The notes under the pieces: generated by a model | Seen by the model: the letters and a program-made list of their open reading frames with translations, nothing else | Databases searched by the model: none | Told to the model about the DNA's origin: nothing | Source of the DNA: an uncultured Candidatus Saccharibacteria bacterium | GTDB lineage: Bacteria; Patescibacteriota; Dojkabacteria; J137 | Direction of reading: 5' to 3' | DNA length: 64,000 nt | Assembly (NCBI GenBank): GCA_965230975.1 | Contig: OZ246402.1 | Location: 165,771-229,770 of the forward strand | Made by a program: the position numbers and the translations under genes | Part shown: piece by piece, positions 12,049 to 46,580 of the stretch | Position numbering within the stretch: the first letter of the stretch is position 1 | How the letters are laid out: each line of letters starts with the position of its first letter

Positions 12049-12777
12049 ATGCATATAATATTAGTTTCCTTTTTAGCTGGTATCTTGACAGTATTAACAC
12101 CCTGCTCTTTTACTTTGTTACCTGTAATATTGAGTACAGGCTTAGAAAATACAAAAAGTAAAAAGAGACCGTATTTAATTATTTTATCATTAGCATTATC
12201 TGTAATTTTATTTACATTATTATTAAAAGCCACAACCGCATTAATTGATATTCCTTTACAAACATGGAATATTCTATCGGGCATTTTAATTATTTTTGTT
12301 GCACTCTCTTTTTTATACCCCGATTTGTTTAGTAGAATTTTAAAGAAAAACCCAATAACCTTAAAAAGTGAGTCGGTATTTAAAAATAGTTTTGAATCGC
12401 AAAGCACTATTACATCAATACTTGCAGGAATTTCTTTAGGACCAATTTTTACTGGCTGCAGTCCAACATATTTATTAATAGTTTCTGTATTATTACCCAC
12501 AGATTTTTTTAGTGGATTAATTTACTTGCTTGCATATGTTTTTGGACTATCGACAATTCTTATTCTGGTATTATTTGGAGGAAGATCTATTGTTAATAAA
12601 TTCAAATGGGCAATTAATCCTCAAGGCAAATTTAAAAAGCTGTTGGCAATTGTAATGATTATCTTTGGAATATTAATCATTTCTGGCCTTTACAAGCAAA
12701 TAGAATCTTCTTTGTTAAGTGCCGATTTTTCTAGGAATATTATTAATTTTGAGAGAGGTTTTTTGCAAAACAATTAG
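12049..12777 (+). CDS. CcdA/DsbD-family cytochrome c biogenesis / thiol-disulfide transporter-like membrane protein
   Basis: LAGILTVLTPCSFTLLPVIL matches the DsbD/CcdA TM1 cysteine motif. About 6 TM helices, and a second Cys in GCSPTYLL. Confidence 0.55.
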   Translation: MHIILVSFLAGILTVLTPCSFTLLPVILSTGLENTKSKKRPYLIILSLALSVILFTLLLKATTALIDIPLQTWNILSGILIIFVALSFLYPDLFSRILKKNPITLKSESVFKNSFESQSTITSILAGISLGPIFTGCSPTYLLIVSVLLPTDFFSGLIYLLAYVFGLSTILILVLFGGRSIVNKFKWAINPQGKFKKLLAIVMIIFGILIISGLYKQIESSLLSADFSRNIINFERGFLQNN

Positions 12778-13980: not shown

Positions 13981-14286
13981 ATGAGCGTAAATCCTACAAG
14001 TTCAAAAACAAAACTAATTGCTGCAATTCTAGTTGGTGTGGTGCTGATTTTAGGTATAGTTATTGGTGCGTTAGTTTATTCTAATACTCCAAAAGACATG
14101 TCTTTTAACAGCGATATTTGCTGGAATACTGTGCTAGATGGAGAATACTGGGCAAATGGTTGTAAAGGCTCTAAAAACAAAGACTTAATGTGTACGGAGG
14201 CATTGGTTAAATTAACACCAGAAGAAAAAGTCGAATATCAAAAGTGGGTTAATGCAGGAAAACCTTTAATTGAAGGTTGCGATTAA
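13981..14286 (+). CDS. small membrane-anchored/secreted Cys-containing hypothetical protein
   Basis: 101 aa. N-terminal TM/signal (LIAAILVGVVLILGIVIGALVY) and 5 Cys in the exported part. Confidence 0.4.
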   Translation: MSVNPTSSKTKLIAAILVGVVLILGIVIGALVYSNTPKDMSFNSDICWNTVLDGEYWANGCKGSKNKDLMCTEALVKLTPEEKVEYQKWVNAGKPLIEGCD

Positions 14287-14340: not shown

Positions 14341-14370
14341 AAAGGCCCCGACAAGGTCGGGGCCTTTTAA
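14341..14370. terminator. bidirectional rho-independent terminator
   Basis: GGCCCCGAC-AAG-GTCGGGGCC (9-bp GC-rich stem, 14344-14364) flanked by AAA and TTTTAAA. Sits between convergent genes ending at 14286 (+) and 14387 (-). Confidence 0.8.
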
Positions 14371-14386
14371 ATCTCAAATTAATTAA

Positions 14387-16405
14387 TTAAGGGCATGCAT
14401 CAAATTCACAGTTTAACTTTGGGTTTCTACCAACATAACTTCCATCTGGGCAAACTTTTGCATCCATAGTACAAGCAATATCTGTAGATCCTGACCCTGT
14501 GGAACCATCTCCAATTCCAGGGTCTACAGGGATTGGTCTATTTGCAACTTCTAATAAAGCGGTTTTAATAAAATTATAATCGCTTGTATTATTTGGGTTG
14601 TAGGCTTTCAAATTTAAATCAGAAGCTGCAACTTTCGTACCTGTATAAACATCTTTAGATGCACTATAGACATGTCCATTATATTCAAAAATAATGTAAG
14701 CATAGTCATAAGTTGATTCTTCAGCTGAATCTGGGGCCATTATTCTTGAATCGCTAGATACACCTGAGTTAGATGATGTAGCAACTCCCTCTCTTAAATA
14801 GTACCAGTTTTGAGTTGCTGTAAATGTTAAAAGTGTAGCGTTAACATTTACACCATTTATTTTTATTACAATATTTTCTGCGGATTTATTTTGAACCTCA
14901 GAAAAAGTATTGCTTTTAGAATCAGAAACCTGAGCAATTGTTGTACCTTTTTCAAAACTTTCAATGTACATTGTTGTATTACCATCATCTTTAACAAAGT
15001 TGAAATTACTTTCTGCCGTTAAGTATGTTGAAACATCAGTTGGATTGTATAGTTTGAATAAATCATCTCCAAGTGAGCCACTTGGATAAAACGCTCTATC
15101 TGCTCTGTAATTTGAATTAGTAGGCTCTGTAGTTGTATTTACATAGGAGTACCCATAACTTATAGTATAAGTTTCCGGAATTAATACATAGGTTTGAGTT
15201 GATTTCAAAGCATCTATAGTTCTCGTTGCCTCTTTTTCTGCAGAATACTCTTCTGCAGGTATGTATGGATAAATAACATCTTTAACCGGTACATTTACTC
15301 CTAAGGTGAAGATACTATTAGCTTCTGCTTCCGTTATTGTTTTTGTCTCTACTGTAACTATTGTACTGCTCATTAAGTTTGCTGCATCTGCACTACCTAA
15401 ATATGTTTTGGTATCTAAAATAGAATATGTTTCTGAATTTATTTTGTTTTCATAAACAACTGTTGACTCTACGTTGTTACATAAAAGTGAATAAGAGTAT
15501 CTTAAAACGTAATAAGTTTTTCCATTTTCAGATACGGTACCAACAATTTTTGCATCTGGCCCAAAGTATTGTGTTACTAATGTCTCATAATCTGGTTCTG
15601 TGGCTTGAGATTCTTCTGGTGTTGTGGGCCCAGACACAGCTTCGTCTAATACAGCAGTGCCAGCTAACGGCGAAATACTAACGTTTGTTGGGCCTTGGTC
15701 ATAAACATTTCTAACTGCATAGCTTCCACCTGCATAGTCAAAGTAAATGGAGTTATTACCCTCGTATTTGGACACACTTAAATTTGTAATTTGGTTATTG
15801 GCACTGTAAGTAACATATTTATACATGTAAGATCTGTAATCTGATCCTCCGTTGGGTCTGAATTCGTATGTATCTGAAATCGAAGTTACTTTATCAAAGT
15901 TAAATGCATTTTCACACTTACTAGCTGCAGGGCCTGCAGTTATTGAAGTTCTGGTGTATCTGTAATTTGCTCCATTAAAGTCATCTATTATTGGGGCTAT
16001 GGTTAGGGAACTAGCCATGTCGCTTGCTCCTGCATTTCTTGCAGGGCTTAATGCTGCCCCTTCTTGTATTGTAGATACAGAGTTATTTGCTAAAACTTTA
16101 GAAAGTATCGCTAAGGTATCTTCTTTTGAATAACCAGAGCCTTTTTTTAATTGTGCTAAATAGTAAACAGAAAAAGCAGATACCGCAACAACAAAAATAG
16201 CTACTGTTATGACCGATGCAATCAATACTTTGTTTTTCATAATCTTGTAAATAAATAAGTTATTATTTGTGTACTCTTTTTGATCAGAAAGAGTAAACTC
16301 TTTAAGCGAATTTTCAGCTATGCTACTCCATTCTATATCAATTTTAGATTTAGAAGTAAGTAATATCTCTTTTAATTTTGTATCATTTAATTTTTCCATT
16401 TGCAA
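14387..16405 (-). CDS. anti-sigma-factor-like single-pass membrane protein with a large extracytoplasmic S/T/N-rich domain and a C-terminal Cys-rich module
   Basis: 672 aa. Short cytoplasmic N-terminus, one TM (VLIASVITVAIFVVAVSAFSVYY), then ~580 aa extracellular. Ends with CTMDAKVCPDGSYVGRNPKLNCEFDACP. Start overlaps the upstream ECF sigma gene by 23 nt. Confidence 0.55.
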   Translation of the reverse strand: MQMEKLNDTKLKEILLTSKSKIDIEWSSIAENSLKEFTLSDQKEYTNNNLFIYKIMKNKVLIASVITVAIFVVAVSAFSVYYLAQLKKGSGYSKEDTLAILSKVLANNSVSTIQEGAALSPARNAGASDMASSLTIAPIIDDFNGANYRYTRTSITAGPAASKCENAFNFDKVTSISDTYEFRPNGGSDYRSYMYKYVTYSANNQITNLSVSKYEGNNSIYFDYAGGSYAVRNVYDQGPTNVSISPLAGTAVLDEAVSGPTTPEESQATEPDYETLVTQYFGPDAKIVGTVSENGKTYYVLRYSYSLLCNNVESTVVYENKINSETYSILDTKTYLGSADAANLMSSTIVTVETKTITEAEANSIFTLGVNVPVKDVIYPYIPAEEYSAEKEATRTIDALKSTQTYVLIPETYTISYGYSYVNTTTEPTNSNYRADRAFYPSGSLGDDLFKLYNPTDVSTYLTAESNFNFVKDDGNTTMYIESFEKGTTIAQVSDSKSNTFSEVQNKSAENIVIKINGVNVNATLLTFTATQNWYYLREGVATSSNSGVSSDSRIMAPDSAEESTYDYAYIIFEYNGHVYSASKDVYTGTKVAASDLNLKAYNPNNTSDYNFIKTALLEVANRPIPVDPGIGDGSTGSGSTDIACTMDAKVCPDGSYVGRNPKLNCEFDACP

Positions 16406-16868
16406 TATTTTTTAATTTATCAAAAGCTCTAAAAACTGAAACCCTAATAGTGTTTTCATTTTCACTATAAATTTCTGAAATTTCTTTGTATGTGTACCCC
16501 AATACATAATGTAATATTACTAACTCCTGCTCTCTTGGCTTCATTTGTTGCAAAGACTTTGCAACATAGAATTTATAAAGTTCATTTTCGCTTTCTTCTA
16601 TTTCAAAATCTTTATCTAAACCTATTTCTTTGTTATTTTTCTTTAAGCTATCTTTAGTGCTATTACTTGCGATTTGAAATAACCAATTTCTTAAATTTCC
16701 ACCTTTAAACAAATCTCTTTTAACCCAGGCTTTTTCAAATGTCTCTTGAGTTATGTCTTCTGCTAAATCTTTAACTCTATTACATCTGAAAAACACAAAT
16801 GTAAAAATATCTTCACGATAAAGGCGAAAGGCTTCTATTAGGTTTTCCCAAGTTTTAAGTTCATTCAT
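16383..16868 (-). CDS. ECF-type sigma-70 family RNA polymerase sigma factor
   Basis: Region 2 (DITQETFEKAWVKRDLF...NWLFQIASNSTKD) and region 4 HTH (EQELVILHYVLGYTYKEISEIYSENENTIRVSVFRAFDKLK). Confidence 0.8.
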   Translation of the reverse strand: MNELKTWENLIEAFRLYREDIFTFVFFRCNRVKDLAEDITQETFEKAWVKRDLFKGGNLRNWLFQIASNSTKDSLKKNNKEIGLDKDFEIEESENELYKFYVAKSLQQMKPREQELVILHYVLGYTYKEISEIYSENENTIRVSVFRAFDKLKNIANGKIK

Positions 16869-16933
16869 TAAATATTTTGCGTACTCTATATAAACGAGTA
16901 AAAATAGATTTTGTTACAGATTTTTTTTGGGAA

Positions 16934-17272
16934 TTAGCAAGGTTTAAACTCGCATTTGTTGTTTGGGTCTCTTATTACGAAACTACTATCTTCGCATTGT
17001 TTTACATCTTGTGGGCAGTAAATTACACCATTTGTTGGAGCAATTGCTTTACTACAGTTAAACTGACAACTGTTTAAAGGGTCTCTGCTAGCATAACCCC
17101 CGTTTTCACATATTTGAACATCTTCTTGGCATTTTATGTTTGTTACTATATCTCCAGAAATAAGGGTTAAGTCTTTAGATGTAGCTAATGGAAGGTTGAT
17201 TACAAAGATTGCAACTGCAACAGCACCAAATACTATAAATACAAATGTAAATATTATTAAGAATTTCTTCAT
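16934..17272 (-). CDS. small secreted protein made of two Cys-rich modules
   Basis: 112 aa. Signal/TM (FLIIFTFVFIVFGAVAVAIFVI), then CQEDVQICENGGYASRDPLNSCQFNCS and CPQDVKQCEDSSFVIRDPNNKCEFKPC. Same C-x5-C-x-DG/S-S-[YF]-x-x-R-[DN]-P-x3-C-[EQ]-F-x2-C spacing as the C-terminus of the 672-aa protein. Confidence 0.5.
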   Translation of the reverse strand: MKKFLIIFTFVFIVFGAVAVAIFVINLPLATSKDLTLISGDIVTNIKCQEDVQICENGGYASRDPLNSCQFNCSKAIAPTNGVIYCPQDVKQCEDSSFVIRDPNNKCEFKPC

Positions 17273-17400
17273 ATACTTTAATATATTAGGTGGAAATTCA
17301 ATTTATTGCAATATCTTGGTTAAATTGCTTTTTGAAAGCAAGCTTAATTTACCTTGCACCAAGTTAACGTAATAGTCGTTAAAAAAAATAATCAATTCAA

Positions 17401-17435
17401 AAACAAAAAAAGGGCCTTTCGAAGAAAGGCCCTTG
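17401..17435 (-). terminator. rho-independent terminator for the 520-aa gene (minus strand)
   Basis: GGGCCTTT-cgaag-AAAGGCCC (17411-17431). Read on the minus strand it is followed by a T7 run (complement of 17404-17410). Confidence 0.7.
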
Positions 17436-17456: not shown

Positions 17457-19019
17457 TTAGGATTCGTTTCCCCAAAGTAGTTTTTCAAATTCTATTGGGT
17501 ATAGTTCTCTAAACACTCTTTTGAAATTTCCTTGTCTTAAATTCACCCGTTCAGGCAGATTTTCAGGGTTCTTGCTTAATTGTTCTTGATAATCTTCCTC
17601 ATCAAGCTCTAGTGAAAGGGAATAAACTTGAATTAAATTATAGAATACAGGGTGCATAATATATTCATTAGCTAGCTGATCAAAATCTACATCTGTATTA
17701 AAAATTAGCTTACTTAAAAATTCTAAGATAATTGCATCTGCTTCGTTTTGATCTATTCTGTAACCATTTTCAAATTTTTCATTTACTTCATCTGTTAAGA
17801 TTACTTTATCTGAAACTTGCGTTTTTATATGGGTAAGTGCGTTTAAGAATTCAATAGCAGGCTGAGAAACAGGATCACTGTTAGTTGAATCCATATTCAT
17901 TAACACCATATCTTTTTGTAGAGTTCGGGCTAGTCTTATATTGGCTTTTTCTAATGAGATGTGTCTTTGAGCTGGATTTACCTCTTTTGGAAAAAGAGGT
18001 GTTACGTCAACTAATTTATACTCAACAGAACCGTTCATCCAGTTAATTATGTTCAAAGCACCTTCGATAGTAAAGAATAAAACCTCCCTTTGATCAGATC
18101 CATCTACTGCAACATCTGATCTGTATAATTTTTGCCACATTGCATAGTCTAACTTAAACTTTCTTTTGAAAGCTAAGTTGCTACTTGTAGCCCTAACTAA
18201 ATTTAGTTTTTTAAGAACTTCAAAAATGTCGTCTAAAGTAATGTAATAGTCAGTGAAGTTGCTTATTTCTGCTCTGCTTACAATGTCCTTATCTGCTCTT
18301 ATTTGGCGTATCTTTCTATAAATTACAGAATTTTTACTTATAAAATCCTTTCTTTCGCTATCGGAGAATTTATTAAGTTCTCTTAGGTATCTAATAAAGT
18401 TAAAAATTCTACTATCCCACTTCAAATCATCAATCTCACTGTCTTCTGTAATTAATCCATAATGATATAAGTGTTCTGAAATACTAGTTCTGCTATAACC
18501 TGTCATTTCTTGCAACATTGAAAGTCTAACAGAACCATTTAAGCCTCTCTCTTCTAATATTTTATTTAAAAAGTTTTGTACTGATTTACCCAGGGCTATT
18601 AATATTTTGTTTTCTATATAAGCACCCTTCTCTATCTCCTGAAGGTTTCGGATAAGTTCATCAATATTATCTCTTCTATCCTTCCACACTAATAAGTGAT
18701 GTTGGGCAATAAGTTTGGTTTGTGTTACTTCTGCGAATGATGCTGAGGTTCTCGACATAGTCAATTCAGCATTGAAATACTGTTCTATATAGAAATTTAC
18801 ATACTCTTGAAATTTTTGGGAAACATAATCAAGAAATCCTTTAATTAATGCTGTGTATGATTTTGCAGACAGCAATTCAATTAATTCTTCATTTGTTGGA
18901 TTAGAAGCAATGCCAAGTGATCCGACATATCTAAACGTATCTTCCATTTCTTCCACAGCATTTCTTAGAGCTGTATTGTTTGTTAGATTGTTTATGCTAC
19001 TAAGAAGGTTAATATCCAT
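17457..19019 (-). CDS. hypothetical protein
   Basis: 520-aa ORF between the two ECF operons. No recognised motif. Confidence 0.4.
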   Translation of the reverse strand: MDINLLSSINNLTNNTALRNAVEEMEDTFRYVGSLGIASNPTNEELIELLSAKSYTALIKGFLDYVSQKFQEYVNFYIEQYFNAELTMSRTSASFAEVTQTKLIAQHHLLVWKDRRDNIDELIRNLQEIEKGAYIENKILIALGKSVQNFLNKILEERGLNGSVRLSMLQEMTGYSRTSISEHLYHYGLITEDSEIDDLKWDSRIFNFIRYLRELNKFSDSERKDFISKNSVIYRKIRQIRADKDIVSRAEISNFTDYYITLDDIFEVLKKLNLVRATSSNLAFKRKFKLDYAMWQKLYRSDVAVDGSDQREVLFFTIEGALNIINWMNGSVEYKLVDVTPLFPKEVNPAQRHISLEKANIRLARTLQKDMVLMNMDSTNSDPVSQPAIEFLNALTHIKTQVSDKVILTDEVNEKFENGYRIDQNEADAIILEFLSKLIFNTDVDFDQLANEYIMHPVFYNLIQVYSLSLELDEEDYQEQLSKNPENLPERVNLRQGNFKRVFRELYPIEFEKLLWGNES

Positions 19020-19135
19020 AATAGTTGATAATTAATATATCCTAATTATATCACCGAATACAGGAGTTTGTCACCAGCCGATGATGACAGGTCTTTGAGG
19101 GGGGTGCAAAGAATGCCCTTTGGATAATGTGTTTT

Positions 19136-20224
19136 TTAAAGCGTATAGCTTACCGGCAAGGAGATTTGCTCTTCAAGGGTTAAGTTTAAATCATACTCAA
19201 ATTCGCGTTCTACTTTTGAAACATCAATTTGCTTCTCTCTTTTATAAAAAGTTTGAGTATATAAAAGATTAAAACTGTTAATATTGTTCAAATAAGTTTC
19301 ACTAAACTCTAGTTCGAAACTTACAGTATTAAAATAGCTTAAAGTAATAAGTTTTGATTTAGAATTCGCACTATAAGAAGTCGGAAAAGACGCAGGATTT
19401 ATACAATCAAAAATGCTTTGAGTTTTTAAAACATAAAACTCTTTGCCGTTCTTTTTAATTTGCATATCTAAAATAGTATCTTCAAAAAATATATCTTCTG
19501 AAGAAGCTCGAACTGAGTATGAAACTGGATAAGAGTTAACCTCTTGAGTATTCTTAGGTAAATTTAATGTTGAAAAATTTCTAACCACTGTACCCTCTTC
19601 ACTTAACAGGTATTCTTCCAAACTTTGACCCTTTAATTTAGATAAATTATATCTAGTCACATTATTATTTAAATCCCTAGATATAATTTTAGAGAAATAC
19701 TTTGTTTTATCTCTGTACTCACTAAAGAAAGTAGTGCCACTTTTAACATTAAGCGCGGAACACTCATTTGAATATGTTTGGGTAAAAGTTGAAAACTCTG
19801 CTAAAAAATAGTCTTGAGTAAAGTTTTGTTGAATGGACGTAATATCCATTTGTGGATCAATATTTGTGCTTGTTGGATTGGACTTAACGCTTGCTTCGAT
19901 TACCTTAATAGGGTTGTTTTTAATAATGTTTTGGTAAACATTAGCTTTTTCTTCTACGCTAAAGTTAGTATTAACTGTTTGTACAGATGGGGCAATACCA
20001 CCGCTAAAACTATTAACTAAAAAAATTAATGCCAAAGATAAAATTGCCAAAGATCCAAAATAAAAGGATAGTTTAGGCAAAATACTAGGTTTTTTGTAAT
20101 ATTCTTTAATAACCTCTACTTTCAAGGAGTGTTTAAAATTGGGATCAGCAACAATATCTTTCTTTGCAAAAGCTTTTAAAAAAACCTTTTCTTCTTTTGT
20201 AAAATCGCTCATTAATGTATTCAT
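19136..20224 (-). CDS. anti-sigma-factor-like single-pass membrane protein
   Basis: 362 aa. About 50-aa cytoplasmic N-terminus, TM (LSFYFGSLAILSLALIFLV), extracytoplasmic remainder. Lies 27 nt downstream of an ECF sigma gene. Confidence 0.45.
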   Translation of the reverse strand: MNTLMSDFTKEEKVFLKAFAKKDIVADPNFKHSLKVEVIKEYYKKPSILPKLSFYFGSLAILSLALIFLVNSFSGGIAPSVQTVNTNFSVEEKANVYQNIIKNNPIKVIEASVKSNPTSTNIDPQMDITSIQQNFTQDYFLAEFSTFTQTYSNECSALNVKSGTTFFSEYRDKTKYFSKIISRDLNNNVTRYNLSKLKGQSLEEYLLSEEGTVVRNFSTLNLPKNTQEVNSYPVSYSVRASSEDIFFEDTILDMQIKKNGKEFYVLKTQSIFDCINPASFPTSYSANSKSKLITLSYFNTVSFELEFSETYLNNINSFNLLYTQTFYKREKQIDVSKVEREFEYDLNLTLEEQISLPVSYTL

Positions 20225-20250
20225 TTAAATATAAAGTCTTGCCTGGAGTA

Positions 20251-20778
20251 CTAACTTGTAGTTTCTATGGCTTCTTTAAGAGAATGTAATCCTCTTTTTT
20301 GCATTGTTTTTACATAATTCATATTTTTATCTAATTTTACGCAAATCTCTTTAAGACTAAGTTTTTCTATAAACCTTAGTCTCATTACAACTCTTTGCTT
20401 TTCTGGTATAAATTGCATATATCTTAAAAGTTTTTCTTCTACAGTCTCACTTTCTTGCTCTGTTTCTTTAACAAACTGTGCACAATATTCTTCAAAATCA
20501 TCGTCTAAATCTGAAAATGGAATGCCTTGCCTATACTTGTCTTTTAAATATCTCATAAAAATATTTTTGGCAATACCGTACAAAAAGTGTGAAGGTTTTT
20601 CAATTTCGTTTTCGTTAGCATTTTTTGCAATATTTGCAAACGCAAGGAATGTTTCTTGGGTTAAATCTTCTGCGATGTCTTTAGATAGTACTTTGTAGTA
20701 GAAAAATTTATATAATTTATTAAAATGTTGGTCGTAAAGTTCTGCTATGTTCAAAGTTTGAGTATTCGATATTTGCAT
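20251..20778 (-). CDS. ECF-type sigma-70 family sigma factor
   Basis: Region 2 DLTQETFLAFAN and region 4 QRVVMRLRFIEKLSLKEICVKLDKNMNYVKTMQKRGLHSLKE. Confidence 0.8.
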   Translation of the reverse strand: MQISNTQTLNIAELYDQHFNKLYKFFYYKVLSKDIAEDLTQETFLAFANIAKNANENEIEKPSHFLYGIAKNIFMRYLKDKYRQGIPFSDLDDDFEEYCAQFVKETEQESETVEEKLLRYMQFIPEKQRVVMRLRFIEKLSLKEICVKLDKNMNYVKTMQKRGLHSLKEAIETTS

Positions 20779-38382: not shown

Positions 38383-38544
38383 TTGTGTATTTTAATAAAT
38401 AATTAAGAATTAAAAAATCTAAGTTTTAAATTCACTTTGGTAGCCCAAAATTACTATTCTTAACCTCGAATTTTTGACTTTGACTATATAGCCAAATTAT
38501 AAACATACCGTTTTTAAACGGCATGTCTATTATTTGATTACAGT

Positions 38545-39138: not shown

Positions 39139-42100
39139 TTATGAAATAGCTGCAGGTTCTTCTATTTTTGCGTTTTCATCAAAATCAATTAATGTTTCGC
39201 CATAGTGAGACCTTACATTCCCGCTAATTTTTTCTTGTAAAACTTCTCCAACTGGAATTGGACGTCCGATTATAACATTTTCTTTCAATCCTCTCAAATG
39301 ATCTACTTTACCAATAAGGGCTGCGTCGGTTAGAACCCTAACTTGTTGCTCAAATGATGCTGCAGATAAGAAGCTTTCTGTTCTTAAAGCTGCGTTTGTA
39401 ACACCCATAATAACTCTTTCGAATTTAGCAATCCTCTTTCCTTCTGACCCTAATTTTTGATTTTCTACCATTACGTCTAGAATATCAACATAGTCTCCTG
39501 GTAAGAATAATTCGCTATCTCCGCTATCTTGAATTAAGGCGTATCTACTCATTTGTCTTGCAACAATTTCCAAGTGCCTGTCATCTGCTTCTAAACCTTG
39601 AATACCGTAAACATCTTGAACTTCTTTAATAACATACTTTTGTGCATCGGTTACAGATCTTAGTTTTGCCATTTCTTTAGGATCAATAGATCCAATTGTC
39701 AATTGAGTACCCTTTTCTACATGTTGTCCATCTTGTACTAGTAAGCTAATCATTGAATCTGCTTCTTTTTCTACTTCCATATCTTTTTCGGTTACTAGAT
39801 CTATACTGTTTTTGCTAACAGATGCTACTCCAGTGAAATCTGCCTTTATATCTTTACCACTCTTCTTGCCTAATAAGTCGCCAGCCTTTACCTTTGCACC
39901 ATCTTTTATAGCAATATCTTCTGCAGAATCAAATTCATATTTTTTATGAACTTTCTTTTTATCTGCAATTCTTATTGTTACTTTCTTCTTATCTTCTACA
40001 ATTGTTACAGTACCAGAAATATCGGCTAATAATGCTAATGCCTTTGGAGTTCTAGCCTCAAGTAATTCCTCTACTCTTGGTAAACCTTGAGTAATGTCGG
40101 ATTTTGCAGCTCTAGCGTCAGATTTACTTTTTAGTGTTAACTGAGTTGTTGGTTCTCCAAGGGCTTGAGATGCAATTGTACCAACTGCTTCTCCAATATT
40201 GATAATTTCTCCGGTACCGTTATCTACACCGTAACACTTAATACACATTCCATGGGCTTTTTCACAAGTTAATGGACTTCTAACTTTCACTTTTGTAATA
40301 TTCTCGTTTTCTGCAATTTCTTTTGCTATTTTTGGTGTAATGTATTCATTTCTTTTAATCACAATCTCTCCAGTTTTACTATCTGCCAAGTCTTCTGCAA
40401 CAAATCTACCTTTAATTCGGTTTGCATAAGCTTGAAGTCTAGCTTCTGATTTATCTATAAATATTCCGTTTTCTGTACCACAATCTTCTACATTTACTAC
40501 AACATCTTGAGCTACGTCATGCAATCTTCTAGTTAAGTAACCAGAGTCTGCTGTTCTTAGCGCAACATCTGCGAATGATTTTCTTGCTCCTCTTGCAGAT
40601 ACAAAGTATTCAAAGCTTGATAAACCTGATTTAAAGTTACTCTTAATAGGTAAATCTACGATATTACCTGTTGGGTCAATAACGTATCCACCTACTCCAG
40701 AGATCTTTTTAACCCAAGCACTTACTGGAGTTGCTCCAGACTGGTCAAGGTCAACCAAGTTCTTTGAGTTTTGTTTTGCAATGCTCCAAACTTCGCTTTG
40801 TAGCTTGTCTGCTGCATCTGCCCATTGCTCTCTTTTTAACCACTTTAATTCGTTTAATGTGATTAAACCTTCGTTGTATTGCTCAATAAGTTTGTTTTCT
40901 ACATCTGCAAAGTTTTCTAATCTAGTCTTTAGTTCATCATTTGCACCAAATTCAAATTCTTCCATAGAGATTGACAATCCGTGTTTAGCAGCATATTGGA
41001 AACCTAAAGTTTTAATTTCGTCTAATACTCTAATCGCCTCATCTCTACCATATCTATCAAAGATATTTGCAGATATTTTAGAAATATCACTTTGGTTTAA
41101 TGATTTGTTTACAAATTCATAGTCGCTAGGTAGTGCTTTGTTGAAAATTGCTCTACCAGCTGTTGTTACAATAACCTCACCATTTAAAAGTAATTTAATT
41201 GGATCGCTAAAGCTAATTTTTCCGGTATAGTAGTCTGCAATTGCTGATTCATCTGATGAATAGAATCCAACTGGGTTAGCTTCGTTTCCTTCTAGTTTTG
41301 TTAAGAAGTAAATACCCATGGCCATGTCAAACTTTGTGTGAATCAAAGGTGACCCGTCTCTTAAAGATAAAATATTATCTTTAGCAAACATTCTCTTTTT
41401 AACTTCTTCAATAGAAGCTTCTGAAAGTGGCAAATGAACTGCCATTTGGTCTCCGTCAAAGTCAGCGTTAAAACCTTTACATGTAATTGGGTGCAATCTA
41501 ATAGCGCTACCTTCTATTAATACTGGGTAGAAAGCCAAAATAGATTGTCTGTGTAAGGTTGGAGCTCTGTTTAGTAAAACAGGGTGGTCTTTACTTACAT
41601 CTTCTAAAATATCCCAAACGTCATCTGACTTGCTTTCAAATACAAGCTTTGCCCTTGCAGGGTTTGCTGCATATCCTCTAGCAATTAATTCTCTGATAAT
41701 GAATGGTTTAAATAGTTCTAATGCAATTGTTTTTGGTAAACCACACTGGTCAAATCTTAATTCTGGACCAGCAACAATTACTGCGTTTCCAGAGTAGTCT
41801 ACTCTTTTACCCAATAAGTTTTGTCTAAATCTACCTTGCTTACCTCTTAACATGTCAGATAATGATTTAAATGGCATGCCTCTTGAGTTTAATGAAGGTG
41901 ATCCTGGTTTGTGATTATTATCTAATAAAGAGTCAACAGCTTCTTGAAGCATTCTTTTTTCATTTCTTAAAATGATTTCAGGTGCTCCTAATGCGATTAA
42001 TCTTCTTAATCTATTGTTTCTGTTAATTACTCTTCTATATAGGTCGTTTAAGTCGTAAGTAGCAAATCTACCTCCTGGTAATTGAACAATTGGTCTTAAA

Positions 42101-43086
42101 TCTGGAGGAATTACAGGTAGTATATCCATTATTATTGCAGATGGATTTACGCCGGATTTTCTAAGTCCTTTAAGAATTCGAACTCTTTGTACTAATCTGC
42201 TTCTTTTCATTGCAGATTTGCTTACAGCAAGCTCTGCTTCAATTGTTTCAATTTCTGCATTTATATCTAGCTTTAATAAAAGCTCTTTAATTGCTTCTGC
42301 ACCCATTCCTGCCTCATAAAAGTAGAATGCATATCCGTCTAATAATTGAAACTCCTCTTCTGAAAGAGTTGTTCCAAGTCTCATGTCTTCAATTAAATTC
42401 TTGATATCTGTGAACTTTTTATCAATATTTTCTTCTCTTTGTTTGTATGCAGATTTTATTTTTGCAGCTTCTACTTTTTCTGAATTTCTTAATCTCTCTA
42501 ATTGCATTTCTGCTTTTGATTTATCTTTGTTAGCTTTTCTTACATCTTCTGATTCTTCTTCAAACCTTGCTTTATTTTCGTTAATTTTTGATTCTAATTC
42601 TGTTGCAAGCTCTTCAACTTCTGTTTTTTTGTACTCTTCTAGGTTTTCTAAAGCTTTTTTTCTATCTTCTTCGTTGATTGTGGTTACAACATATCTTGCG
42701 TAATAAATTACGGTTTCAATTTTCTTTTGAGGGATATCTAAGATCAAAGAAAGTCTATTAGGTACACCATTAGAGAACCAAACATGTGCGATTGGAGCGG
42801 CTAGTTTAATGTGACCCATTCTCTCTCTTCTTACTCTTTTGTGCGTTACTTCTACTCCACATCTATCGCAAACGATACCTTTGTATCTAATCTTTTTGTA
42901 TTTTCCGCAATAACATTCAAAATCTCTAGTTGGACCAAAGATCTCTTCTGCCATCAATCCTCCTGGTTCTGGCTTGAATGTTCTATAGTTGATTGTTTCC
43001 GCCTTTGTTACCTCTCCATGAGACATATTTAGTATGTCTTGGGCAGAAGCGATTGTTATCTTGACTGCTGTAAAATCTTTTAACAT
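39139..43086 (-). CDS. rpoC: DNA-directed RNA polymerase subunit beta'
   Basis: 1315 aa. NADFDGDQMAVH catalytic motif and conserved beta' blocks throughout. Confidence 0.95.
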   Translation of the reverse strand: MLKDFTAVKITIASAQDILNMSHGEVTKAETINYRTFKPEPGGLMAEEIFGPTRDFECYCGKYKKIRYKGIVCDRCGVEVTHKRVRRERMGHIKLAAPIAHVWFSNGVPNRLSLILDIPQKKIETVIYYARYVVTTINEEDRKKALENLEEYKKTEVEELATELESKINENKARFEEESEDVRKANKDKSKAEMQLERLRNSEKVEAAKIKSAYKQREENIDKKFTDIKNLIEDMRLGTTLSEEEFQLLDGYAFYFYEAGMGAEAIKELLLKLDINAEIETIEAELAVSKSAMKRSRLVQRVRILKGLRKSGVNPSAIIMDILPVIPPDLRPIVQLPGGRFATYDLNDLYRRVINRNNRLRRLIALGAPEIILRNEKRMLQEAVDSLLDNNHKPGSPSLNSRGMPFKSLSDMLRGKQGRFRQNLLGKRVDYSGNAVIVAGPELRFDQCGLPKTIALELFKPFIIRELIARGYAANPARAKLVFESKSDDVWDILEDVSKDHPVLLNRAPTLHRQSILAFYPVLIEGSAIRLHPITCKGFNADFDGDQMAVHLPLSEASIEEVKKRMFAKDNILSLRDGSPLIHTKFDMAMGIYFLTKLEGNEANPVGFYSSDESAIADYYTGKISFSDPIKLLLNGEVIVTTAGRAIFNKALPSDYEFVNKSLNQSDISKISANIFDRYGRDEAIRVLDEIKTLGFQYAAKHGLSISMEEFEFGANDELKTRLENFADVENKLIEQYNEGLITLNELKWLKREQWADAADKLQSEVWSIAKQNSKNLVDLDQSGATPVSAWVKKISGVGGYVIDPTGNIVDLPIKSNFKSGLSSFEYFVSARGARKSFADVALRTADSGYLTRRLHDVAQDVVVNVEDCGTENGIFIDKSEARLQAYANRIKGRFVAEDLADSKTGEIVIKRNEYITPKIAKEIAENENITKVKVRSPLTCEKAHGMCIKCYGVDNGTGEIINIGEAVGTIASQALGEPTTQLTLKSKSDARAAKSDITQGLPRVEELLEARTPKALALLADISGTVTIVEDKKKVTIRIADKKKVHKKYEFDSAEDIAIKDGAKVKAGDLLGKKSGKDIKADFTGVASVSKNSIDLVTEKDMEVEKEADSMISLLVQDGQHVEKGTQLTIGSIDPKEMAKLRSVTDAQKYVIKEVQDVYGIQGLEADDRHLEIVARQMSRYALIQDSGDSELFLPGDYVDILDVMVENQKLGSEGKRIAKFERVIMGVTNAALRTESFLSAASFEQQVRVLTDAALIGKVDHLRGLKENVIIGRPIPVGEVLQEKISGNVRSHYGETLIDFDENAKIEEPAAIS

Positions 43087-43112
43087 ATTTAATTAATAAA
43101 AGTTATTAGTAT

Positions 43113-43134
43113 GGATTGCGGTTTCCCGCAATCC
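43113..43134 (-). promoter_or_regulatory. strong GC-rich hairpin in the rpoB-rpoC intergenic spacer
   Basis: GGATTGCGG-tttc-CCGCAATCC, a perfect 9-bp stem, in an otherwise AT-rich 62-nt spacer. No adjacent U-tract. Confidence 0.4.
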
Positions 43135-43148
43135 AATAAATTCAAAAT

Positions 43149-46100
43149 TTAAAAACTAGAATCAGACTCCATTAAAGCGGAAACTGTCTCATCATTTCCT
43201 ATAGAATCAACAATTTCTTCAAGCGCCATATCGCTTCTTTCTTCGTCATATTCTGGATTAATTTTATCCATCTTTATTCCTAAACCTGCTAACTCTTTGT
43301 CCAATACATTAAATGATTCTGGAACTGTTGGAGCTGTAATTCTTTGACCTGAAATTATAGCTTTGTAAGCTGCCGCTCTACCAACTACGTCATCTGACTT
43401 AATTGTAAGCATTTCGTGCAATACATGTGGTACTGCGTGAGCCTCAAGTGCCCAAACTTCCATTTCTCCAAATCTTCGTCCTCCTCTTTGAGCTTTACCT
43501 CTAAGTGGCTGTTGGGTTACTAATGTGTATGGGCCAGTTGATCTTGCATGTACTTTGTGATCTGCCAAGTGGTCTAGTTTGAATGTGTATTTCATTCCAA
43601 CTGTTACTTTGTGGTTGAACTTTTCTCCTGTTCTACCATCAAATAGATCAACTTTTTCTACATAATCTAATCCTTGGTCTTTAGCCATTTGGATTAACTT
43701 ATCTAGGTCGTATTCAGCAAAAGGTTGTACTTCTACTTTTACGCCTAATTTATGTGCCAATTCCCCAACATGTGTTTCTAATAACTGACCAAGGTTCATT
43801 CTTCTGATCATTGAGATCGGGTTAAGAATGATGTCTACTGGTCTTCCATCTTCTGTGTAAGGCATGTCTGCTTCTGGAACGATCTTTGTAACTACTCCCT
43901 TGTCTCCGTGGAAACCTGTTAATTTGTCTCCAACTGATATTTTATGAGTTTTAGCTACCCATACTTTAACTTGTTTAATTACACCAGCGTTTAATTTTGC
44001 ACCGCTTGATCTATCTAATACTTGAATTCCAACTACAACTCCATGTTCTCCATGGGGAACTCTTAGCGAGTTGTCTCTAACATCTCTTGCATATTCTCCA
44101 AAGATTGCTCTTAATAATTTTTCTTCTGCTGTTAATTCTGTTTCTCCTTTTGGGGCAATGATTCCAACTAATATATCGTTAGATTGAACATTTGCACCGA
44201 TTCTAACTACACCTTCTTCGTCTAAGTTTCTTAAAGCCCATTCTCCTACACCCGGAATATCTCTTGTTACTTGTTCGTTTCCAAGTTTTGTTTCTCTAAT
44301 TTCTTGTACATATTCTTGAATATGCACAGATGTTAAAACGTCATCTTTAACTAATCTTTCAGAAATTACCATTCCGTCTTCAAAGTTATAACCATCGTAT
44401 ACAACGTAAGCTACTCTTAAGTTAGCACCTAATGCTAGCTCTCCGTTTTGACTACAAGGAGCATCTACTAAGACCTCTCCTTTATCAAACTTGTATCCAG
44501 GTAATACATTTACGCTTTGTGAGAAAGATGAGTTTTGATTTGTTCTTACAAATTTCTCTACTGGGTAAGTTACTTTGTTTTTTTGACCTTTGTATTGAAC
44601 AACAACTTTTTGAGCGTCCGCTTCTATAACTTCACCAGCTTCTTCTGCATAAATTGCTCTACCGGTTGCTTTAACTGCATCTTTTTCAAATCCAGTTCCA
44701 ACAATAGGAGAATCTGCTTTTACTAGTGGAATTGCTTGAGTTTGTGTCTTTGCTCCAATTAATGTTCTGTTAGGGTCATCGTTTCCTGCAAAAGGAATTA
44801 ATGAAAGTCCCATTGCTCCGATTTGTGCTGGACTAACGTCTACTAAGTCTACCTCGCTTGTAGGCACCTTAGCGTAGTTTGCACCATCTCTAACGTAAGT
44901 TGCTTTTTCTAAAATGTTTCCGTTTTCATCTGTATGAATACTTGAGCTTCCGATTTTGTGAGAAGCTTCTTCATCTGCATCTAGGTAAACAATCTCTTTT
45001 AACACAAATGGCATAACTTTAAATTCTTTAATACCCTCTTTTTCAATTTCAGCTAATGCTTTGTCTGTAATTACATCTCCAGCTTTAGCAATTGTTTTTT
45101 TACCACCAACAACATCTGTTCCAAATCTTCTGCCATTTAAGATATCTTTTTTGTCTTTCTCAAAGTTGAACTTGTTAACAACCTGATAGTAAGGTGCTTC
45201 TAAAAATCCAAATTCGTTAATGCTTGTATAGATTGCCATTTGGTTTACCATACCAACAGATGGACCCTCTGGAGTTGTTACAGGACATAATCTTGAGTAA
45301 TGAGAGTTGTGAACATCTCTAACAGAGAATGTTGCTCTCTCTTTTGTAAGTCCTCTTGGACCACCAGCGGAGATTTTTCTTTTTACTTCAAGTTCTGAGA
45401 ATACATTTTCTTGGTCCATGAATCTCATTAATGCAGAGCTACCAAAGAATTGATTAACTGCAGATATGATTGGTCTTGTATTAACAACCATTGCTGGTGT
45501 TACTTTTTCATCTGTAGAGTAAGTACTCATTTTGTCTCGGATGTTCTTTTCCATAATTAGAACACCGATTCTTAACTTTTCTGCTACCAATTCATCTACA
45601 CCTCTGATTCTTCTGTTACTTAAACTATCAATGTCGTCTGATTGTCTTACGCCATGATTTAATTCAAGTAAACATTTCATTACTTCTACAATGTCTCTCT
45701 TTTTTAATGTGTAGTCTGCAACTGTAAAGTCTTCTGTAATGCCAAGTTTTTTGTTTAGTTTATATCTACCAATTTTACCTAGGTAGAATCTTCTTTTGTT
45801 AAAGAAGATGTTATCTATTAATGCTTTTGCATTTTCAATTGTTACTGTATCTTCTGGTCTTAATTTTCTGTATATATCTATTAAAGCTTCTTCTGTATTT
45901 TTTGTTGGGTCTTTTCTTAGTGTTGCATCAATAAAGCTAGCTTCTCCCTTGTCAGAGTCTCCTAATGCTTTTTTGATTTCTGAATCTGAACTGTAACCTA
46001 ATGCTCTTAATAATGTAGTTAATAGGATTCTAGGTCTTTTTTGAAGCAGTTTAATGCTCATTACTCCGTATTTGTTTACTTCAAATTCGTACCAGTTACC

Positions 46101-46580
46101 TCTGTGAGGCATTAGTTTTACAGAATAAAGTCTCTTTTTTGGTGTTGATGCCTTGCTTTCACTAAATAAGACTCCTTCTGATCTTAAAATTTGGAAAACT
46201 ACTACTCTCTCGTTTCCGTTAACCATGAAAGAACCTCTGTCGCTCATGATAGGCATGTCTGCCAAAAAGATTTTTTGTTTTTTAATTTCTCCAGTTTTTT
46301 TGTTAACTAGTCTTATGTTTGCGTGTACGGGTGCGTCGTATGTTAATCCTAATAATTGAGCATCTCTAAAAGAGATTTTTGGTTCACCCCAATTAAAATC
46401 CTCAAAAGATAATTCCCAAGAATTACCTGTGTAATCTGCAATTGGTGATATTTCATCAAATAATTCGTAGAATCCGTTTTCTACAAATTGTCTAAAAAAC
46501 TTCTTTTGAGCCTCCAATAAGTCCATATCCAGGTGTGGAGTTGGGTTCTTGGTGAGGTTTACTCGGGTGACATTTGGCAT
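43149..46580 (-). CDS. rpoB: DNA-directed RNA polymerase subunit beta
   Basis: 1143 aa. Conserved beta blocks throughout (for example GFHGDKGVV, LGQLLETH, RFGEMEVWALE). Confidence 0.95.
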   Translation of the reverse strand: MPNVTRVNLTKNPTPHLDMDLLEAQKKFFRQFVENGFYELFDEISPIADYTGNSWELSFEDFNWGEPKISFRDAQLLGLTYDAPVHANIRLVNKKTGEIKKQKIFLADMPIMSDRGSFMVNGNERVVVFQILRSEGVLFSESKASTPKKRLYSVKLMPHRGNWYEFEVNKYGVMSIKLLQKRPRILLTTLLRALGYSSDSEIKKALGDSDKGEASFIDATLRKDPTKNTEEALIDIYRKLRPEDTVTIENAKALIDNIFFNKRRFYLGKIGRYKLNKKLGITEDFTVADYTLKKRDIVEVMKCLLELNHGVRQSDDIDSLSNRRIRGVDELVAEKLRIGVLIMEKNIRDKMSTYSTDEKVTPAMVVNTRPIISAVNQFFGSSALMRFMDQENVFSELEVKRKISAGGPRGLTKERATFSVRDVHNSHYSRLCPVTTPEGPSVGMVNQMAIYTSINEFGFLEAPYYQVVNKFNFEKDKKDILNGRRFGTDVVGGKKTIAKAGDVITDKALAEIEKEGIKEFKVMPFVLKEIVYLDADEEASHKIGSSSIHTDENGNILEKATYVRDGANYAKVPTSEVDLVDVSPAQIGAMGLSLIPFAGNDDPNRTLIGAKTQTQAIPLVKADSPIVGTGFEKDAVKATGRAIYAEEAGEVIEADAQKVVVQYKGQKNKVTYPVEKFVRTNQNSSFSQSVNVLPGYKFDKGEVLVDAPCSQNGELALGANLRVAYVVYDGYNFEDGMVISERLVKDDVLTSVHIQEYVQEIRETKLGNEQVTRDIPGVGEWALRNLDEEGVVRIGANVQSNDILVGIIAPKGETELTAEEKLLRAIFGEYARDVRDNSLRVPHGEHGVVVGIQVLDRSSGAKLNAGVIKQVKVWVAKTHKISVGDKLTGFHGDKGVVTKIVPEADMPYTEDGRPVDIILNPISMIRRMNLGQLLETHVGELAHKLGVKVEVQPFAEYDLDKLIQMAKDQGLDYVEKVDLFDGRTGEKFNHKVTVGMKYTFKLDHLADHKVHARSTGPYTLVTQQPLRGKAQRGGRRFGEMEVWALEAHAVPHVLHEMLTIKSDDVVGRAAAYKAIISGQRITAPTVPESFNVLDKELAGLGIKMDKINPEYDEERSDMALEEIVDSIGNDETVSALMESDSSF

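Follow-up and report, generated by a model that had tools for sequence, protein, structure and literature searches.

A candidate accessory partner, built from an unnamed cysteine module, beside an extracytoplasmic function sigma factor and its putative membrane-bound sensor

Introduction

What is the role of a small cysteine-rich protein encoded beside an extracytoplasmic function (ECF) sigma factor and a large membrane protein that shares its cysteine motif? The question is raised by a 64-kb stretch of DNA from an uncultured Candidatus Saccharibacteria bacterium (contig OZ246402.1; the whole 64,000-nucleotide stretch is called the window here). Three consecutive genes on its minus strand encode a 112-aa protein (the small protein), an ECF sigma factor and a 672-aa anti-sigma-like membrane protein (the sensor). 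A preliminary description of this locus had proposed that the small protein consists of two copies of a novel module that recurs at the C-terminus of the sensor, and that the two proteins form a ligand, decoy or co-receptor pair controlling the sigma factor.

The analysis presented here indicates that the locus is a three-gene ECF signalling unit confined to a narrow clade of small-genome, low-GC bacteria. It is plausible, and on this analysis most likely, that the small protein serves as an accessory partner; the picture as a whole, an ECF/anti-sigma unit with the small protein in that part, is put forward with a little under even confidence.

Results

Three copies of one cysteine module

A loose regular expression applied to all six frames of the 64-kb window recovered three copies of the module and no others. 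Two of these lie in the small protein: module 1 (C48-C73, CQEDVQICENGGYASRDPLNSCQFNC) is encoded by positions 17054-17131 (-) and module 2 (C86-C112, CPQDVKQCEDSSFVIRDPNNKCEFKPC) by positions 16937-17017 (-), both being recovered by the regular expression, by alignment and by an external hidden Markov model (HMM). The third copy, CTMDAKVCPDGSYVGRNPKLNCEFDACP, is encoded by positions 14390-14473 (-) at the C-terminus of the sensor (external profile, 55 bits, E 3.5e-16). It is tethered there by a low-complexity Pro/Gly/Ser linker (…PVDPGIGDGSTGSGSTDIA; 14474-14533 (-)) that is apparent in the sequence and has a low predicted local distance difference test (pLDDT) score. The similarity persists in alignment: the three window modules and their orthologue copies align without internal gaps, with Cys1-3, the Arg and the Phe invariant, and pairwise identity among the three is 10-13 residues of 28 (36-46%). 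The spacing of the four cysteines, described previously as conserved, thus holds for the first three, whereas the fourth Cys of module 1 lies one residue nearer (CQFNC versus CEFxxC).

The external HMM was built from 105 modules of unrelated organisms, with the window sequences excluded. Against it the small protein scored E 5e-24, with two domains, and the sensor E 2e-16; the next of the 1,097 reading-frame segments of the window scored E 0.57. The HMM therefore finds exactly the two copies in the small protein and the third at the sensor C-terminus that had been claimed, and the module likeness between the two proteins is far beyond chance. All three copies match this profile, with the four cysteines, D4, G11, R16 and F24 in register save for the shifted fourth Cys of module 1. 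The sensor module lies near the family consensus, with four differences each from a module of protein P0051 and from that of P0173, and the modules of the small protein lie farther from it. A recent duplication of the sensor module as the source of the small gene was considered and set aside, since the modules have diverged to the identities given above and the small protein is nearer to lipoproteins of Marinicella.

The small protein begins with a hydrophobic N-terminal helix (residues 2-25, 22-25 long), followed by a linker with a conserved LT(L/Q)ISG motif and then the two modules. Its AlphaFold2 model has a pLDDT of 81 overall and 84-94 over the modules, each of which forms a small β-hairpin. 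The protein had been described as secreted; the hydrophobic helix is indeed present, but it may be an uncleaved membrane anchor, and secretion is not established. In homologues with 54-85% identity every Cys, R and F is kept, which is indicative of purifying selection on the small protein. A search of PDB sequences with the small protein gave nothing credible (best E 1.1, spurious), and a Foldseek search of its model against the PDB gave nothing below E 1.

The gene unit and its promoters

The sigma factor gene (16383-16868 (-), 161 aa) matches the Pfam models Sigma70_r2 (PF04542, 2.8e-9) and Sigma70_r4_2 (PF08281, 2e-11) as well as the NCBIfam sigma70-ECF model TIGR02937 (70.8 bits against a cut-off of 42.9). 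Its best NCBIfam subfamily, the SigM family, falls below its own cut-off, and regions 1 and 3 are lacking. Judged from these matches, the product is an ECF (group 4) sigma factor of the sigma-70 family and of plain type. The sensor gene (14387-16405 (-)) gives 672 aa from a TTG start or 670 aa from the ATG at 16399, two codons in, which is the start chosen by gene callers elsewhere, and the two genes overlap by 17-23 nt. These open reading frames are as first described, and the order of the sigma factor gene before the gene for a single-pass membrane protein is kept in four distinct homologous loci (L006/L092, L007, L009 and L011), where the sigma factor gene lies directly upstream of the sensor homologue; L097 has the same order.

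The small gene (16934-17272 (-), 112 aa, from the open reading frame list, with the homologues noted above) does adjoin the sigma factor gene, although 'immediately upstream' overlooks a 65-nt gap that holds a promoter. All three genes are on the minus strand and are framed by two strong intrinsic terminators. At the 5' boundary, the terminator at 17410-17434 (-) (11-bp stem with 6 GC pairs, then a T-run) closes an upstream operon that comprises a second sigma factor gene and genes for 362-aa and 520-aa proteins. At the 3' end lies a second terminator at 14341-14367 (-) (12-bp stem, 8 GC pairs), an equivalent of which is also found 3' of the sensor gene in L092. No terminator was found between the genes of the trio, including between the small gene and the sigma factor gene, so that read-through from the former into the latter is likely. 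An Rfam scan of the whole 64-kb window returned no family at gathering score, and hence no tRNA, rRNA or riboswitch.

Upstream of the small gene the sequence reads TTGCAA-N17-TAATAT (17283-17311 (-)), a predicted sigma-70-type promoter that ends 10 nt before the small-gene ATG, a distance at which the mRNA would have little or no leader. L092, L095 and L097 keep both hexamers and their 17-nt spacing, and L096 has a variant form, while the flanks have diverged. This implies that the small gene is driven by a predicted housekeeping-type promoter of its own. In L006/L092 (1-170), four head-to-tail copies of a repeat of about 45 nt (…cagcttatttctaattaatctcgcctttg…tacaata…) lie just upstream of this promoter; the repeat is absent from the window.

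Within the 65 nt that separate the small gene from the sigma factor gene lies TGTAAC-N16-CGTTTA (16891-16918 (-)), a sequence with no second exact match in the window. Its shape is the classic one of ECF promoters, as seen in Bacillus. It has the AAC -35 and CGT -10 elements by which an autoregulatory ECF promoter is predicted. The pattern alone is not significantly enriched in the window (three matches against 1.6 expected; with mismatches, nine against 6.9). What makes the promoter credible is its conservation across lineages: it recurs in the corresponding position in L092 (gap of 189 nt) and L097, and L095 has a copy with a single mismatch, whereas the 16 nt of spacer sequence are not kept. 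The element is probably the autoregulated promoter of the sigma/anti-sigma pair. A one-mismatch copy, TGTAAT-N16-CGTTTA, is found at 38515-38542 (-), intergenic between two genes of about 155 aa each and downstream of two very large open reading frames at 39139-46580 that are taken as RNA polymerase subunit genes. As a second ECF promoter this copy was discounted and treated as chance, the match count being within chance expectation.

Linkage of the small gene and the sensor module

Word-index homology searches yielded five relatives of the small protein and eight of the sensor, and a metagenome scan with the sensor family added only two further loci, both from lineages already found. The sensor homologues, 613-684 aa long and 26-46% identical, all cross the membrane once. 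Both the C-terminal module and the small gene occur in the window's strains and in L006/L092, the sensor of which is 45% identical. The more distant sensors of L007, L009, L010 and L011 have neither, and no module lies within ±6 kb of them. Where the contig allows it to be seen, in L095 and L097, the small gene is followed by the sigma factor gene. A different gene precedes the small gene in L094/L095, so that the small gene adjoins the sigma factor gene in at least four lineages despite a change of upstream neighbour. Moreover, the module is carried by two genes alone in the 64 kb, and a single gene separates them. Together, these patterns of occurrence suggest a partnership of the small protein with the sensor, a proposal to which we give nearly, but not quite, an even chance.

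The same data bear on another explanation, in which the two genes are mere neighbours: the module would be a generic stalk or spacer, placed on the sensor as a neutral or stabilizing cap, the small protein would be an ordinary surface protein, and the transcript that it has in common with the sigma operon would reflect tight gene packing in a reduced genome. This is a sizeable possibility, if a lesser one. It would account for the position of the small gene ahead of the ECF-type promoter and for its separate housekeeping-type promoter. It does not readily explain why module and small gene go together, in presence and in absence, at six homologous loci, why the small gene keeps the sigma factor gene as its neighbour though the gene upstream changes, why there is no terminator between the two, or why the sole two module genes of the window lie so close to each other.

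The membrane sensor

The sensor comprises a cytoplasmic N-terminus of about 57 aa, a transmembrane helix, an ectodomain of about 590 residues, the Pro/Gly/Ser linker and the C-terminal module. In a hydropathy scan, residues 60-83 (16157-16228 (-)) are the only stretch with a 19-residue window above 1.6 and form the single transmembrane segment. The ectodomain contains 11% Ser, 10% Thr and 8% Asn, some 1.5-2 times the level of other window proteins, and is enriched in Tyr too. Composition and the single hydrophobic segment therefore agree with the single-pass protein with a S/T/N-rich extracytoplasmic domain that had been described. Two cysteines of the ectodomain, C164 and C309, are invariant across the sensor family.

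An AlphaFold2 model of the sensor, made from eight sequences, has a mean pLDDT of 59, with β-rich cores at 70-90. When this model was compared with the PDB by Foldseek, RseB/MucB structures (6jau, 3m4w and 2p4b) came first (E ~1e-6, probability 1.00, TM-score 0.34-0.37), followed by LprG and other LolA-like proteins. A Pfam scan of the sensor gave no MucB_RseB, LolA or DUF4367 match. With moderate confidence and from the model, we read the β-rich ectodomain (residues ~140-620; 14546-15988 (-)) as RseB/LolA-like in fold, and such an RseB/MucB likeness would be in keeping with the earlier suggestion of a sensor-like ectodomain beside the ECF sigma factor.

The first 57 residues contain no Cys and no His, and thus no zinc motif; the signature of class I anti-sigma domains (ASD/zf-HC2, HxxxCxxC) is absent. 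With neither an anti-sigma family nor a zinc motif to go by, the anti-sigma assignment rests on context and topology. Here the loci L010 and L093, which represent one lineage, are informative: the sigma factor gene is missing and the membrane protein lacks the first ~45 cytoplasmic residues, a joint loss that ties the N-terminus of the sensor to the sigma factor. The sigma-less homologues (L010 3555-5501; L093 3872-5818) start 11 nt after a tRNA-synthetase gene, and what remains appears to be an intact RseB-like membrane protein left as an orphan. Gene order and topology make the ECF/anti-sigma core of the unit very probable.

The module family at large

A profile made from 11 copies was run on 1.84 billion representative proteins, the matches being counted as clusters at 50% identity. 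At least 3,893 protein clusters contain the module at E up to 0.001, 658 do so at 1e-10 and 92 at 1e-30, with up to 14 separate tandem stretches per protein. The spacing is C-x6-C-x13-C-x4-C over 28 residues, and 477 canonical copies give the consensus C-[TP]-x-D-[VA]-K-x-C-P-D-G-S-[FY]-V-x-R-[DN]-P-x-N-N-C-E-F-x-P-C-P. Among these copies the Arg is conserved in 96%, the Gly in 94% and Asp4 in 84%; the four Cys and the Phe are set by the pattern used for extraction, and their invariance (Cys, 100%) is by construction.

The carriers include Gammaproteobacteria (Marinicella, Thiofilum, Methylobacter and metagenome-assembled genomes of Lysobacterales), many lineages of the Candidate Phyla Radiation (CPR; Patescibacteria), DPANN archaea, Myxococcota, a foraminifer, Diplonema and MMETSP transcripts. 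Wherever a source name was found for the module itself it is 'hypothetical protein', the sole other name being due to a co-resident Kunitz domain. Pfam and NCBIfam scans of the three window proteins and of tandem arrays of up to 10 stretches gave no model that matches the module, a 107-sequence module profile had no match among PDB sequences at E up to 10, and a full-text literature search for motif strings such as CPDGS and PDGSYV found nothing relevant. That the module corresponds to no named domain is therefore upheld, by Pfam, NCBIfam, PDB sequences and PDB folds alike. The idea that it is a novel sensing unit specific to this system is not, given that it spans bacteria, archaea and eukaryotes with at least 3,893 clusters, and that free small proteins are its commonest form. 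The case that had been named as fatal to the original idea, a common known domain not tied to signalling, thus applies for the most part: the module is widespread and unrelated to signalling, but it is not a named domain.

The commonest architecture is a small exported protein or lipoprotein with one to four copies, with lipoboxes in Marinicella. In CPR genomes a lone module is usually found directly behind the N-terminal membrane anchor, in surface proteins with ectodomains of various kinds that often form tandem arrays of paralogues (L087, L089), and mini-proteins that consist of an anchor and one module exist (P0175). Such arrays were found at L087 61-1821, L089 2758-5315, L059 3560-5547 and L079 1811-5170; in these, each protein combines a membrane anchor and one module with a variable domain, at the end of which is a conserved ILSTFKF motif. 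Among 80 module loci from named genomes, an ECF-like sigma factor gene is near the module in only two, both from Marinicella. There the sigma factor gene is paired with a Ser/Thr-kinase gene, another Marinicella lacks the pair at the equivalent site, and the conserved neighbours of the lipoprotein gene are on the side away from the sigma factor gene. This adjacency looks incidental, and the module thus has no general link to signalling. Each of these features is as expected if the small gene and the sigma operon are merely neighbours: the module occurs in thousands of unrelated proteins, it commonly follows the anchors of diverse CPR ectodomains in paralogue arrays, anchored one-module mini-proteins exist, sigma factor genes are near it in two of 80 loci, seemingly by accident, and the small protein is more like free lipoproteins of other phyla than like the sensor module.

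The spread of the family also bears on the possibility that the small protein is an exported bioactive peptide, bacteriocin-like or a host-directed effector, which the ECF system senses or from which it protects the cell. The small protein is small, Cys-rich, exported or anchored, and has its own promoter beside a regulator of envelope-stress type. Arrays of 2-14 module copies in large structural proteins, in all three domains of life, are atypical for a toxin, however; the unit holds no processing, export or immunity genes, and the long hydrophobic N-terminus is anchor-like. We regard this possibility as highly improbable.

The module is interspersed with Pacifastin and Kunitz protease-inhibitor domains in at least 13 of the roughly 160 best-scoring proteins, and LNR, ricin-lectin and other domains also co-occur with it. 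The inhibitor-domain mosaics (P0021, P0023, P0037, P0108, P0111 and others) include some from Myxococcales and marine eukaryotes, most being unassigned as to source. The Kazal, Pacifastin and Kunitz models match neither the window proteins nor pure module arrays, and these domains adjoin the module and never overlap it. A metal-binding (zinc-ribbon-like) role for the four Cys is unlikely, because there are no CxxC knuckles and the site is extracytoplasmic. Judged from its sequences, the module is a large unnamed extracytoplasmic family, probably disulfide-bonded and used as beads or stalks of surface proteins; its company in mosaics hints that it may be part of an extracellular inhibitor or adhesion toolkit.

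This company raises the further alternative that the module is a disulfide-locked cap, resistant to or inhibitory of proteases, which shields the C-terminus of the sensor, the two-module protein being a decoy for or inhibitor of the same protease. Sigma factor release would then follow when the disulfides are lost under reductive stress or when the small protein is titrated. ECF anti-sigma factors are commonly inactivated by regulated proteolysis, and the interleaving with inhibitor domains, the four invariant Cys with an almost invariant Arg in a loop, the position at the extreme C-terminus on a flexible linker and a DsbD_TM/CcdA thiol-redox gene in conserved synteny, two to three genes away, would all fit. 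On the other hand, an Arg kept in 96% of copies is more readily explained by a structural role than by a specificity-determining reactive site, where variation would be expected; the Cys pattern is like that of no known inhibitor family and has no Pfam match; no protease gene was found in the unit; and the inhibitor link is guilt by association in mosaic proteins. Such a protease cap is considered distinctly unlikely.

Neighbouring genes

A second ECF unit lies directly upstream of the trio (17457-20778 (-)). Its products are a sigma factor of 175 aa (20251-20778) that shares 27% identity with that of the trio, a single-pass protein of 362 aa (19136-20224) and a protein of 520 aa (17457-19019) without a family match. 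Over about 300 aa the single-pass protein is distantly paralogous to the N-terminal half of the sensor ectodomain (BLASTP E 3e-4), and from this likeness the two sigma/sensor pairs look like an old tandem duplication.

On the other side of the sensor gene, a DsbD_TM/CcdA-type thiol-redox membrane-protein gene (window 12049-12777 (+); L092 4432-5163) adjoins a tRNA U5-methyltransferase-like gene, in a synteny downstream of the sensor gene that is found in both module-bearing species. A tie between this gene and the oxidative folding of Cys-rich proteins is possible. Between it and the sensor gene, positions 13981-14286 (+) encode a protein of 101 aa that has a hydrophobic segment at its N-terminus and four Cys arranged otherwise than in the module (CWNT…GCKG…MCTE…EGC), and that matches no family; it is kept in the window's close strains and absent from the equivalent position in L092.

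Discussion

The favoured reading, with the small protein as an accessory partner of an ECF/anti-sigma unit, can be set out as a sequence of steps. The sigma factor would be held inactive by the short cytoplasmic N-terminus of the overlapping membrane protein. With an ectodomain of RseB/MucB-type (LolA-like) fold, that protein would join the roles of RseA and RseB in one polypeptide; on reading an envelope signal the ectodomain would cause the sigma factor to be released, and its own operon would be boosted from TGTAAC-N16-CGTTTA. In this clade the sensor would have gained the 28-residue four-Cys module on a flexible Gly/Ser tether, and a gene for a membrane-tethered or secreted two-module protein would have been gained just upstream, where its housekeeping-type promoter can read through into the sigma factor gene. 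Outside the cell, the small protein would then meet the C-terminal module of the sensor, either by module-module contact or through a common surface ligand.

Several findings weigh against this reading. The joint gain of module and small gene may be one evolutionary event, and hence one observation. The module is generic, with its 3,893 clusters, its common free proteins of one to four modules and its presence near a sigma factor gene at two of 80 loci. The nearest outside relatives of the small protein are the Gammaproteobacterial (Marinicella) lipoproteins, at 45-49% identity, and not the sensor module. The small gene precedes the ECF-type promoter, is not covered by it and lacks one of its own. 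As to the sensor, the fold match has a TM-score of only 0.34-0.37, from a model with a mean pLDDT of 59 built on eight sequences, a sensor-family profile had no match among PDB sequences, and an anti-sigma domain in the N-terminus was absent from Pfam and NCBIfam results at E up to 1.

A more specific version of the partnership would make the module a self-recognizing or thiol-redox-sensitive extracellular switch, with the small protein docking onto, or competing for, the sensor module and so gating sigma factor release. We consider this unlikely; if it were true, it would offer a first way into the function of a very large family of Cys modules that crosses kingdoms, has no name and is prominent in the surface proteins of CPR bacteria and DPANN archaea.

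Pairs of ECF sigma and anti-sigma factors are routine, and the interest of the locus lies mostly in a module family without a name, a structure or any literature that could be found. The family merits definition, since it spans bacteria, DPANN archaea and protists and is a frequent membrane-proximal element of CPR surface proteins. The operon described here is one of the few genetically interpretable contexts for the module, in that a sensor and a co-located small protein appear to have gained it together. The unit would also exemplify an RseA-plus-RseB-like sensor fused in one protein, in a reduced-genome bacterium.

The closest parallels in organization are sigmaE-RseA-RseB of E. coli and AlgU-MucA-MucB of P. 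aeruginosa, in which an ECF sigma factor gene is likewise followed by a gene for a single-pass membrane anti-sigma factor and the sensing element has the RseB/MucB (LolA-like) fold that the model suggests here. RseB and MucB are separate periplasmic proteins, whereas the RseB-like part is here predicted to be fused to the membrane protein, and the window proteins have no sequence likeness to RseA, RseB, MucA or MucB. Unlike the hosts of those systems, the bacterium is probably of CPR type, as judged from a contig of 1.19 Mb, a GC content of 32% and the nature of its relatives, and would lack an outer membrane. The C-terminal Cys module and the upstream two-module gene are additions relative to both systems.

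A precedent for a small anchored partner is CnrYXH of Cupriavidus metallidurans, in which the small membrane-anchored CnrX binds the extracytoplasmic C-terminal end of CnrY; CnrY is the single-pass anti-sigma factor of the ECF sigma factor CnrH and has a cytoplasmic domain of only ~45 aa (PMC6851896). The window locus resembles it as a three-protein operon with a short, putative cytoplasmic anti-sigma domain and a small, possibly anchored protein, which would here make the corresponding contact. In contrast, CnrX is a helical metal-binding dimer that has no module in common with CnrY, and no metal-binding motif is seen here; CnrY has a short periplasmic tail in place of an ectodomain of ~590 aa.

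In its promoters the unit resembles sigW-rsiW, sigM-yhdL-yhdK and sigX-rsiX of Bacillus subtilis, with an autoregulated AAC-N16/17-CGT promoter, a housekeeping promoter upstream and an anti-sigma gene that overlaps or abuts that of the sigma factor. The B. subtilis sigM operon also encodes an extra small membrane protein. The Bacillus operons differ in that the zf-HC2 signature is absent here, the accessory gene lies upstream rather than downstream, and the ectodomain and Cys module are unrelated. The module itself is like the Kazal, Pacifastin, Kunitz, EGF-like and LDL-receptor class A domains in being a short, Cys-defined extracellular unit that occurs singly or in long arrays. It is distinguished from all of these by four Cys in place of six, spaced as C-x6-C-x13-C-x4-C, and by its predicted fold as a small β-hairpin.

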